From Escherichia coli (lineage in GTDB: Bacteria > Pseudomonadota > Gammaproteobacteria > Enterobacterales > Enterobacteriaceae), in the NCBI RefSeq assembly GCF_003334315.1, contig NZ_QOWR01000077.1: a stretch of 14,750 nt of DNA; one strand, written 5' to 3'. The translations under genes were made by a program, and so were the position numbers. Of the stretch, positions 3,932 through 9,021 are shown one piece after another (position 1 is the first letter of the stretch; every line of letters begins with the position of its first letter). Below the pieces are notes generated by a model. It was not told the origin of the DNA. It ran no database searches and was given only the letters and a program-made list of their open reading frames with translations.

Positions 3932-4247
3932 TTTTATCGACGATGAGAACAACGTGCCCGGTGATACACCTTCAAAATTAAGCGTAGATGGCAAATGGAA
4001 AACTTGCCTGCACGGCTTTCTTAATTTCAATGGCATATCAACAACTCATCCATAAATTTTGCATAATTAATGTAAAGACCAGGCTCGCCAGTAACGCTAA
4101 ATTCATTTGGCTGTAAGCGCGGTGTCATCCGCGTCAGGAAAATTAAACAGTTACTTTAAAAAATGAAAACGTAAAAAGGTTGGGTTTCGATGTATTGACG
4201 GGTAAACTTTGTCGCCCGCTAAACATTTGTTTAAGGAATGATTAATT

Positions 4248-4994
4248 GTGACCAAACTCAAACTTCTGGCACTTGGAGTGCTTATCGCAACGTCTGCAGG
4301 CGTAGCGCACGCTGAAGGTAAATTTTCCCTGGGCGCAGGCGTAGGTGTCGTTGAACACCCATATAAAGATTACGATACCGATGTTTACCCAGTACCGGTA
4401 ATCAACTATGAAGGCGATAACTTCTGGTTCCGTGGCTTAGGTGGTGGTTACTACCTGTGGAATGACGCAACGGATAAACTTTCAATTACCGCTTACTGGT
4501 CGCCGCTTTACTTCAAAGCGAAAGACAGTGGCGATCACCAAATGCGTCACCTGGATGACCGTAAGAGCACCATGATGGCTGGTCTGTCTTATGCTCACTT
4601 TACCCAGTACGGTTACCTGCGTACCACCCTGGCTGGCGATACCCTGGATAACAGCAACGGCATCGTCTGGGATATGGCCTGGTTGTATCGTTACACCAAC
4701 GGTGGCCTGACCGTGACTCCGGGTATTGGTGTGCAGTGGAACAGCGAAAACCAGAACGAATACTATTATGGCGTATCGCGCAAAGAGTCCGCTCGCAGCG
4801 GTCTGCGTGGCTATAACCCGAACGACAGCTGGAGCCCTTACCTGGAGCTGAGCGCCAGCTACAACTTCCTCGGCGACTGGAGTGTTTACGGTACCGCACG
4901 CTACACCCGTCTGTCTGATGAAGTTACTGACAGCCCGATGGTGGATAAATCCTGGACTGGCCTGATTTCTACCGGGATCACCTACAAATTCTGA
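4248..4994 (+). CDS. mipA: MipA, MltA-interacting outer-membrane scaffold protein (OmpV/MipA family)
   Basis: 248-aa ORF starting at GTG 4248 (MTKLKLLALGVLIATSAGVAHA-EGK, a typical signal peptide). Length and sequence match MipA as I recall it. AAGGA SD at 4234-4238. Confidence 0.93.
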   Translation: MTKLKLLALGVLIATSAGVAHAEGKFSLGAGVGVVEHPYKDYDTDVYPVPVINYEGDNFWFRGLGGGYYLWNDATDKLSITAYWSPLYFKAKDSGDHQMRHLDDRKSTMMAGLSYAHFTQYGYLRTTLAGDTLDNSNGIVWDMAWLYRYTNGGLTVTPGIGVQWNSENQNEYYYGVSRKESARSGLRGYNPNDSWSPYLELSASYNFLGDWSVYGTARYTRLSDEVTDSPMVDKSWTGLISTGITYKF

Positions 4995-6956: not shown

Positions 6957-7964
<1,008 letters not shown>

Positions 7965-8159
7965 CTATTTGTTAGTGAATAAAAGGTTGCCTGTAAAATT
8001 ACAAAAACCTTACGCAGCGTCAAGCGGAATCGTGTCAATCATTGCGACAAATCAATCCTGTGCCTAAGCATTACGCGACTGACTCGCCTCACTCTTCCTT
8101 TGGGCTTGAAACCACATGGGGTCGGCGCCCCGAATTTTAAAGGGCAATTACGATAAAAA

Positions 8160-8175
8160 TGTGATTTTCATCACG
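8160..8175. promoter_or_regulatory. CRP-like binding site in the gapA / msrB divergent intergenic region
   Basis: TGTGA-TTTTCA-TCACG at 8160-8175 matches the CRP core consensus TGTGA-N6-TCACA at 9 of 10 positions. It lies ~215 bp upstream of the gapA ATG and ~120 bp upstream of the msrB ATG. Confidence 0.4.
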
Positions 8176-8242
8176 ATTTAGGTGCAGCCATTTCGTCGAG
8201 ATCAAGTTTAGGACAAAATTTTGCCAGTTGGTGTTAATGTTT

Positions 8243-8251
8243 TGTTAGAAT
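8243..8251 (+). promoter_or_regulatory. Candidate extended -10 promoter element for msrB
   Basis: TGTTAGAAT at 8243-8251 (TGn + TAGAAT, 5 of 6 to TATAAT), ~43 nt upstream of the msrB ATG. A TTGCCA -35-like hexamer at 8221-8226 is 19 bp away, which is a suboptimal spacer. Confidence 0.35.
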
Positions 8252-8293
8252 CAGTCACGTAATGTGAGCACGATTAAAGTGAGATGTGAGCAA

Positions 8294-8707
8294 ATGGCTA
8301 ATAAACCTTCGGCAGAAGAACTGAAAAAAAATTTGTCCGAGATGCAGTTTTACGTGACGCAGAATCATGGGACAGAACCGCCATTTACGGGTCGTTTACT
8401 GCATAACAAGCGTGACGGCGTATATCACTGTTTGATCTGCGATGCCCCGCTGTTTCATTCCGAAACCAAGTATGATTCCGGCTGTGGCTGGCCCAGTTTC
8501 TACGAACCGGTGAGTGAAGAATCCATTCGTTATATCAAAGACTTGTCACATGGAATGCAGCGCATAGAAATTCGTTGCGGTAACTGTGATGCCCATCTGG
8601 GGCATGTCTTCCCTGACGGGCCGCAGCCAACGGGCGAACGTTATTGTGTTAACTCTGCCTCTTTACGCTTTACCGATGGCGAAAACGGCGAAGAAATCAA
8701 CGGTTGA
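8294..8707 (+). CDS. msrB: Peptide methionine-(R)-sulfoxide reductase MsrB
   Basis: ORF track gives 147 aa from 8264. I place the start at ATG 8294 ([33 protein letters not shown]..., 137 aa). It carries the two CxxC zinc motifs (CLIC, CGNC) and the catalytic Cys context RYCVNSASL. Confidence 0.95.
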
Positions 8708-8748
8708 AAAAACGATTCAGCAACTTATTCCACAGGAGCGGAAAAATT

Positions 8749-9021
8749 ATGAATCTTGATGACATTATCAACAGCATGACGCCTGAGGTATACCAGCGTT
8801 TGTCGACCGCCGTTGAACTGGGGAAATGGCCCGATGGCGTTGCGTTGACCGAGGAACAAAAAGAGAACTGCCTGCAACTGGTGATGCTGTGGCAAGCCCG
8901 CCATAATACCGAAGCACAGCATATGACAATTGACACAAATGGTCAGATGGTCATGAAGAGCAAACAGCAGTTAAAAGAAGATTTTGGTATCTCAGCAAAG
9001 CCTATTGCCATGTTTAAGTAA
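8749..9021 (+). CDS. yeaC: YeaC, DUF1315 family small protein
   Basis: ORF track gives 105 aa from 8704. I place the start at ATG 8749 (MNLDDIINSMTPEVYQRL..., 90 aa) with SD CAGGAG at 8733-8738. It lies 41 bp downstream of msrB on the same strand. Confidence 0.9.
   Translation: MNLDDIINSMTPEVYQRLSTAVELGKWPDGVALTEEQKENCLQLVMLWQARHNTEAQHMTIDTNGQMVMKSKQQLKEDFGISAKPIAMFK

Follow-up and report, generated by a model that had tools for sequence, protein, structure and literature searches.

The window, by which we mean the whole 14,750-nucleotide stretch of Escherichia coli DNA that was analysed, carries genes in the order yeaH–yeaG / mipA–yeaE / yeaD–gapA / msrB–yeaC–ydjL and onward. A reading made from the letters alone (the sequence-only reading) had placed a CRP-like palindrome between the divergently transcribed gapA and msrB genes. 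The gene coordinates bear this placement out, putting the palindrome inside a spacer that measures 341 bp in E. coli. The spacer and both gene starts could be matched in all 5,426 complete E. coli genomes (5426/5426), with the flanking genes annotated as gapA and msrB. The following features define the locus:

6957–7952, minus strand: gapA coding sequence, with the A of its ATG at 7952
8157–8178, no strand assigned: 22-bp cAMP–CRP binding site with its core at 8160–8175 and its centre at 8167.5, identified from sequence, RegulonDB and SELEX identity, a weight matrix and conservation
8294–9021, plus strand: msrB (8294–8707, ATG at 8294) and yeaC (8749–9021), one unit transcribed away from the CRP site

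Positions 8160–8175 read TGTGATTTTCATCACG in the window, that is, TGTGA-TTTTCA-TCACG. The TGTGA-N6-TCACG core therefore agrees with the CRP core at 9 of 10 positions, exactly as first described. Extended to the full operator length, the 22-mer at 8157–8178 (AAATGTGATTTTCATCACGATT) agrees with the CRP consensus of that length at 17 of its 22 positions and has the two-fold symmetric, 22-bp architecture around a TGTGA-N6-TCACA core that defines a cAMP–CRP site.

The bare core, with at most one mismatch allowed, is not significantly enriched over chance in the 14.75 kb (2 matches against 0.60 expected, with at least 2 in 28 of 200 shuffles). Because counting the bare core gave this non-significant result, we adopted a symmetric weight matrix built from 61 unique curated RegulonDB CRP 16-mers, taken from the supplement of Shimada 2011 (PMC3105977) with the gapA entry excluded. 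By this measure, 8160–8175 is the best 16-mer of the window. Its score of 13.85 bits would rank 8th among the 61 curated CRP sites, for which the median is 10.44 bits, and it was attained in 8 of 300 shuffled windows, with 0.027 matches expected per window.

The second-best matrix match, TGTGACCAAACTCAAA at 4247–4262 (12.34 bits), overlaps the GTG at 4248 that is annotated as the mipA start codon. Shimada 2011 gives this motif for a CRP SELEX-chip peak in the spacer mipA<>yeaGH, with no known target; yeaG was 13.1-fold lower in a Δcya strain and 22.2-fold lower in a ΔrpoS strain (Franchini 2015, PMC4512719). Outside E. coli, a 16-mer identical to that at 8160–8175 sits under a Vibrio cholerae CRP ChIP–seq peak near VC2677, an unrelated locus (motif P = 5.7e-07).

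The catalogued gapA CRP site and promoter P3

We compared the palindrome with curated CRP sites and found it already listed. The RegulonDB compilation reproduced in Shimada 2011 (supplementary file 5) contains the entry ‘gapA activator -41.5’ with the sequence gctgcacctaAATCGTGATGAAAATCACATTTttatcgtaat, which is the exact reverse complement of window positions 8147–8188; its core, AATCGTGATGAAAATCACATTT, is the exact reverse complement of the 16-mer at 8160–8175. The site was also bound by purified cAMP–CRP. Genomic SELEX-chip gave a peak in ‘msrB< >gapA’ at 1.86058 Mb whose motif, CGTGATGAAAATCACA, is the same 16-mer, the accompanying SELEX cloning table lists one clone from the msrB/gapA spacer, and gapA is listed in the main text as one of the known CRP targets that the method recovered (Shimada 2011). 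PhyloScan, which draws on cross-species evidence, placed gapA/yeaA within its top 20 genome-wide CRP predictions. For occupancy in vivo we found no record of CRP at this site, and the text and two supplements of a Crp ChIP-exo paper name neither gapA nor msrB.

Four gapA promoters were described by Charpentier & Branlant 1994, and we take their sequences and offsets as they are reproduced in Table 1 of Olvera 2009 (PMC2759082). Mapping these sequences onto the window placed the starts as follows, with the P3 sequence falling at 8126–8164:

7988, minus strand: gapA P1 start, the major promoter, reported not to be Crp-regulated; CRP centre at −179.5
8105, minus strand: gapA P2 start, reported to be a sigma-32 promoter; CRP centre at −62.5
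8126–8139, minus strand: gapA P3 core, with its start at 8126 and the −10 element TAAAAT at 8134–8139 (plus-strand coordinates), that is, −13 to −8
8197, minus strand: gapA P4 start; CRP centre at +29.5, downstream of the start

Olvera 2009 cites Charpentier & Branlant 1994, and the sigma-32 assignment of P2 is taken from the title of that paper. In the same table, which cites the 1994 work, P3 (at −174) is marked as Crp-regulated; the accompanying text states that P1 escapes Crp regulation. The centre of the palindrome, 8167.5, lies 41.5 bp upstream of the mapped P3 start at 8126, which is a class II position, and P3 has no separate −35 element, the CRP site overlapping the place where one would be. 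The RegulonDB gapAp3 site (activator, −41.5) and the palindrome thus coincide in sequence (as reverse complements), in spacer and in their register relative to P3. Given this identity and register, both the original observation and its assignment of gapA to cAMP–CRP control are right, yet they were already known, and the site is almost certainly the catalogued cAMP–CRP operator of the upstream gapA promoter P3.

Transcription from P3 is reported to depend on CRP, as cited in Olvera 2009 from the earlier work and as curated under ‘activator’, and from the −41.5 position we infer a class II contact mechanism. A cAMP-loaded CRP dimer would bind the 22-bp palindrome centred at 8167.5, and because this centre lies 41.5 bp upstream of the P3 start, CRP would stand in for the −35 element. 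It would then recruit RNA polymerase in class II fashion, with the polymerase using the TAAAAT −10 at 8134–8139. In this respect P3 resembles the class II promoters of mglB, galP and glpT (curated at −41.5 or −42.5), in which the CRP centre likewise overlaps the −35 region; like them, it combines a good −10 (TAAAAT) with a −35 that is not recognisable. P3 differs from class II promoters in general in being weak and auxiliary to P1, a strong constitutive promoter downstream of it; its net effect on the gene is small and is overridden by Cra.

The physiological weight of this input is probably limited. On glucose, P1 was the sole start recovered by 5′ RACE (Olvera 2009), from which a small physiological weight of P3 follows. 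P3 is a minor promoter and lies about 138 bp upstream of P1, which is dominant and independent of CRP; since P1 carries most gapA transcription, the cAMP-dependent contribution of CRP through P3 would be modest. In glucose-limited chemostats, gapA mRNA was 3.5-fold lower in a Δcya strain, a value that is unstarred (0.1<p<=0.2) and not specific to one promoter (Franchini 2015). Cra, bound farther downstream, could override the CRP input. Kim 2018 describes gapA as a gene that CRP activates and Cra represses; Cra binds downstream of the promoter and, on acetate, prevails over CRP. McCloskey 2018 concurs. Cra repression is reported to dominate over the effect of CRP on gapA on poor carbon sources. 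The epd–pgk–fbaA promoter, which has a CRP site at −70.5, serves the same pathway and is regulated alike, with CRP activating and Cra repressing and dominating, but its site is placed as in class I promoters and is not flanked by divergent genes.

Relative to K-12, the gapAp3 region of the window strain has no difference at the CRP site. A single base differs in the P2 region, at 8110, where the window strain has GTGGTTTCAAG and the K-12 P2 sequence quoted by Olvera 2009 has GTGGTCTCAAG.

Conservation of the site among Enterobacteriaceae

To follow the site beyond E. coli, we scanned one genome per species for MsrB, which yielded 80 loci, and the gapA–msrB spacer could be delimited in 74 of them. 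Together with the window, these gave 75 aligned spacers. The 74 species represent about 19 named genera, including Escherichia, Citrobacter, Salmonella, Klebsiella, Raoultella, Enterobacter, Kosakonia, Kluyvera, Leclercia and Pluralibacter; they are phylogenetically related, and the independent events are therefore fewer than any count below suggests. In all of them gapA and msrB remain divergent, with spacers of 334–352 bp. In 73 of the 74 species, the best CRP core of the spacer is centred 214.5–216.5 bp from the gapA ATG, and the one exception (L057) has CGTGG-N6-TCACA at the homologous position. Across all 74, the homologous core departs from the consensus at 0, 1 or 2 positions in 40, 23 and 11 species, respectively. 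The centre of the site behaves differently: 56 distinct central hexamers occur among the 74 species, and in the 75 spacers the information content per column is 1.76 and 1.80 bits in the two half-sites but falls to 0.38 in the six bases between them. The half-sites are thus under purifying selection around a free central spacer. The −10 of P3 (ATTTTA on the plus strand) is kept in 71 of 75 spacers, and all 75 place this element at one fixed distance from the CRP centre. Among the E. coli genomes, 5272/5426 have an identical 61-bp segment surrounding the site. This conservation across genera, taken with the literature, settles the site as real.

The strength of the core varies by lineage. Many Citrobacter species, in the loci of the Citrobacter freundii group (L009–L024), have the symmetric but weaker core CGTGA-N6-TCACG (2 mismatches); most other genera have the perfect TGTGA-N6-TCACA, and Escherichia is intermediate. 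One locus (L001, CALMKU010000237.1) lies on a 1.3-kb metagenome-assembled contig labelled ‘uncultured Tolumonas sp.’. Its MsrB is 99% identical to that of E. coli, its spacer matches that of the window in length and in the CRP 16-mer, and the contig probably comes from E. coli and was misbinned.

The palindrome could in principle serve FNR or another regulator of the CRP/FNR family, since GTGAT-N4-ATCAC agrees with the FNR consensus TTGAT-N4-ATCAA at 8 of 10 positions and an FNR ChIP peak assigned to msrB falls in the gapA/msrB spacer. However, that peak (1,860,717) corresponds to about window position 8030, roughly 137 bp away, and lies beside an FNR-like motif of its own at 8042–8055. Matches to the FNR pattern at this stringency are also at chance level (14 in the window against 9.9 expected). 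Moreover, the core conserved between species, TGTGA/TCACA, has G and not T at the base by which CRP sites are told from FNR sites, and it was CRP that selected this DNA in vitro. We consider an FNR-type site very improbable and reject it on the distance of the peak and the chance-level pattern count.

Even less probable, in our view, is that the palindrome has no protein-binding role, being either a product of chance or a small hairpin or terminator within the P4 leader of gapA. The bare-core count in the window would allow a chance origin, and the minus strand can form a 5-bp hairpin followed by TTTTT (−5.2 kcal/mol). Against both stand the invariant distance to the P3 −10 and the SELEX and curated evidence for CRP. 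The terminator scan raised no flag at the site. The half-site letters themselves are conserved, no compensatory changes appear in the stem and the centre is variable; the outer positions occur as T/A, T/G, C/G, C/A and A/A across species. Conserved half-sites with a free centre are the signature of a dimeric protein site and not of a hairpin, and we reject the hairpin and terminator on this pattern and on the weakness of the stem.

The 105 bp directly upstream of the gapA ATG (7953–8057), comprising the leader and the P1 promoter to about −70, are almost invariant in the 75 spacers, with a mean majority frequency of 0.99 and one length variant. The FNR-like motif at 8042–8055, TTGCGACAAATCAA, lies inside this block at −60.5 from the P1 start and about 18 bp from the FNR ChIP peak at 1,860,717. 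Myers 2013 assigns that peak to msrB with the remark ‘TSS not in peak region’; it may concern gapA P1 rather than msrB.

The msrB–yeaC side of the CRP site

The sequence-only reading had proposed that the site couples gapA and/or msrB–yeaC to cAMP–CRP. The gapA half of that proposal holds, through P3, whereas the msrB–yeaC half is supported in part, by geometry, conserved spacing, a published prediction and a Δcya array. The geometry depends on where msrB transcription starts. Bos 2013 (PMC3650055) numbers the msrB leader from G1 and names residues G6/U7/G8, C11, A12 and G32/C33/A34. All of these match the window, and they fit only a start at the G at 8259, which gives a leader of 35 nt and the following promoter:

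8243–8259, plus strand: msrB promoter, with the extended −10 TGTTAGAAT at 8243–8251 and the start G at 8259; CRP centre at −91.5

A generic sigma-70 and terminator scan of the spacer returned nothing relevant, and it missed both this promoter and P3, neither of which has a canonical −35.

Seen from msrB, the CRP centre at −91.5 is in one of the class I registers (about −61.5, −72.5, −82.5 or −92.5), and the RegulonDB list in Shimada 2011 contains curated CRP sites at −90.5, −91.5 and −92.5. The extended −10 is kept in 74 of 75 spacers; 71 of the 75 place it equally far from the CRP centre, and the remaining 4 add 1 bp. The 28-bp linker at 8176–8203 is itself poorly conserved in sequence (majority frequency 0.70), yet it changes length in 5% of species, compared with 41% and 47% for two comparably variable stretches nearby, 8058–8112 and the msrB leader. 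We considered spacing conservation as a way to tell gapA from msrB as the target of the site and discarded it: both spacings are conserved, and they therefore do not discriminate between the two genes.

The closest parallel is the divergent glpTQ/glpABC region, where RegulonDB curates shared CRP sites at −41.5/−90.5 and −40.5/−91.5, much like the −41.5 (gapA P3) and −91.5 (msrB) found here. The glp region differs in having tandem CRP sites with both directions experimentally assigned, whereas the gapA–msrB spacer has one strong site and its msrB direction is predicted.

One microarray, with weak statistics, leans the same way. In the Δcya strain, yeaA (= msrB, b1778) was 5.9-fold and yeaC (b1777) 3.8-fold lower (Franchini 2015, S1 Table); both values stand in the cAMP column only and are unstarred (0.1<p<=0.2), and the same study flags yeaA and yeaC as having a RegulonDB CRP site. 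The partner gene of gapA also appears among the ‘predicted targets transcribed opposite a known target’ of Shimada 2011. In the expression literature we found this one Δcya microarray, and no further data set, for cAMP dependence of msrB or yeaC; the text of Pal 2022 names neither gene. A paper on the CyaR and RprA targetomes mentions msrB only as a RyhB example and draws no link between CRP and a small RNA.

These data make it plausible that the same CRP dimer acts directly in both directions, also serving as a class I activator of msrB–yeaC from −91.5 through the α C-terminal domain of RNA polymerase. Such an arrangement would extend, and not replace, the explanation of the site through gapA P3. 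On the other side of the balance, the Δcya mutation is pleiotropic, the constraint on linker length may just as well be due to gapA P4, a promoter that overlaps the linker, and the compared species are related to one another. Activation by a single CRP dimer at about −92 is usually weak. The 2011 reproduction of RegulonDB gives gapA as the sole target of the site, and our literature search turned up no reporter, footprint, mutational or binding-dependent test of CRP on msrB. Overall, direct CRP control of msrB–yeaC is plausible but unproven. Our tentative estimate is that one conserved dimer, acting throughout the Enterobacteriaceae in class II fashion at gapA P3 and in class I fashion (−91.5) at msrB–yeaC, has somewhat less than an even chance of being correct.

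The cAMP dependence of msrB–yeaC could instead be indirect, a reading that we also hold possible at a little below even odds. CRP bound at +29.5 of the opposing P4 might relieve msrB from interference by that overlapping promoter, or the effect might pass through regulators that are altered in the Δcya strain (RyhB and iron, ArcA, FNR or RpoS-linked effects). The documented regulators of msrB are RyhB (Bos 2013), ArcA and FNR, and metal-transport genes change in the Δcya strain. In addition, the gapA P4 promoter elements (8204–8235) and the −35/UP region of msrB overlap back to back. By contrast, msrB and yeaC are listed in the cAMP column and are absent from the RpoS column, the CRP site is conserved, of high quality and on the correct helical face, and our search of the literature recovered no data on P4 activity.

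For gapA the picture is unchanged, because RegulonDB already records the site together with its position and sign; the P3 site is known. If msrB–yeaC does prove to be a direct CRP target, an oxidative-repair gene would be added to the cAMP hunger response, placing methionine-sulfoxide repair under direct cAMP control beside its RyhB, ArcA and FNR inputs. The locus would then be a further natural case in which a single CRP dimer acts on two divergent promoters, on one from a class II and on the other from a class I position, an incremental gain for a very large and well-studied regulon. With the spacing fixed on both sides of the site in about 19 named genera, the msrB question is well defined.

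Two other elements lie on the msrB side of the spacer. A conserved block, AAGTTTAGgaCAAAA (8204–8218), could serve either gapA P4 or the msrB promoter. In the msrB leader, at +5 to +20, a weak CRP-like 16-mer (TGTGAGCACGATTAAA, 8263–8278) scores 9.54 bits, below the curated median, in a poorly conserved stretch that overlaps RyhB pairing site I.
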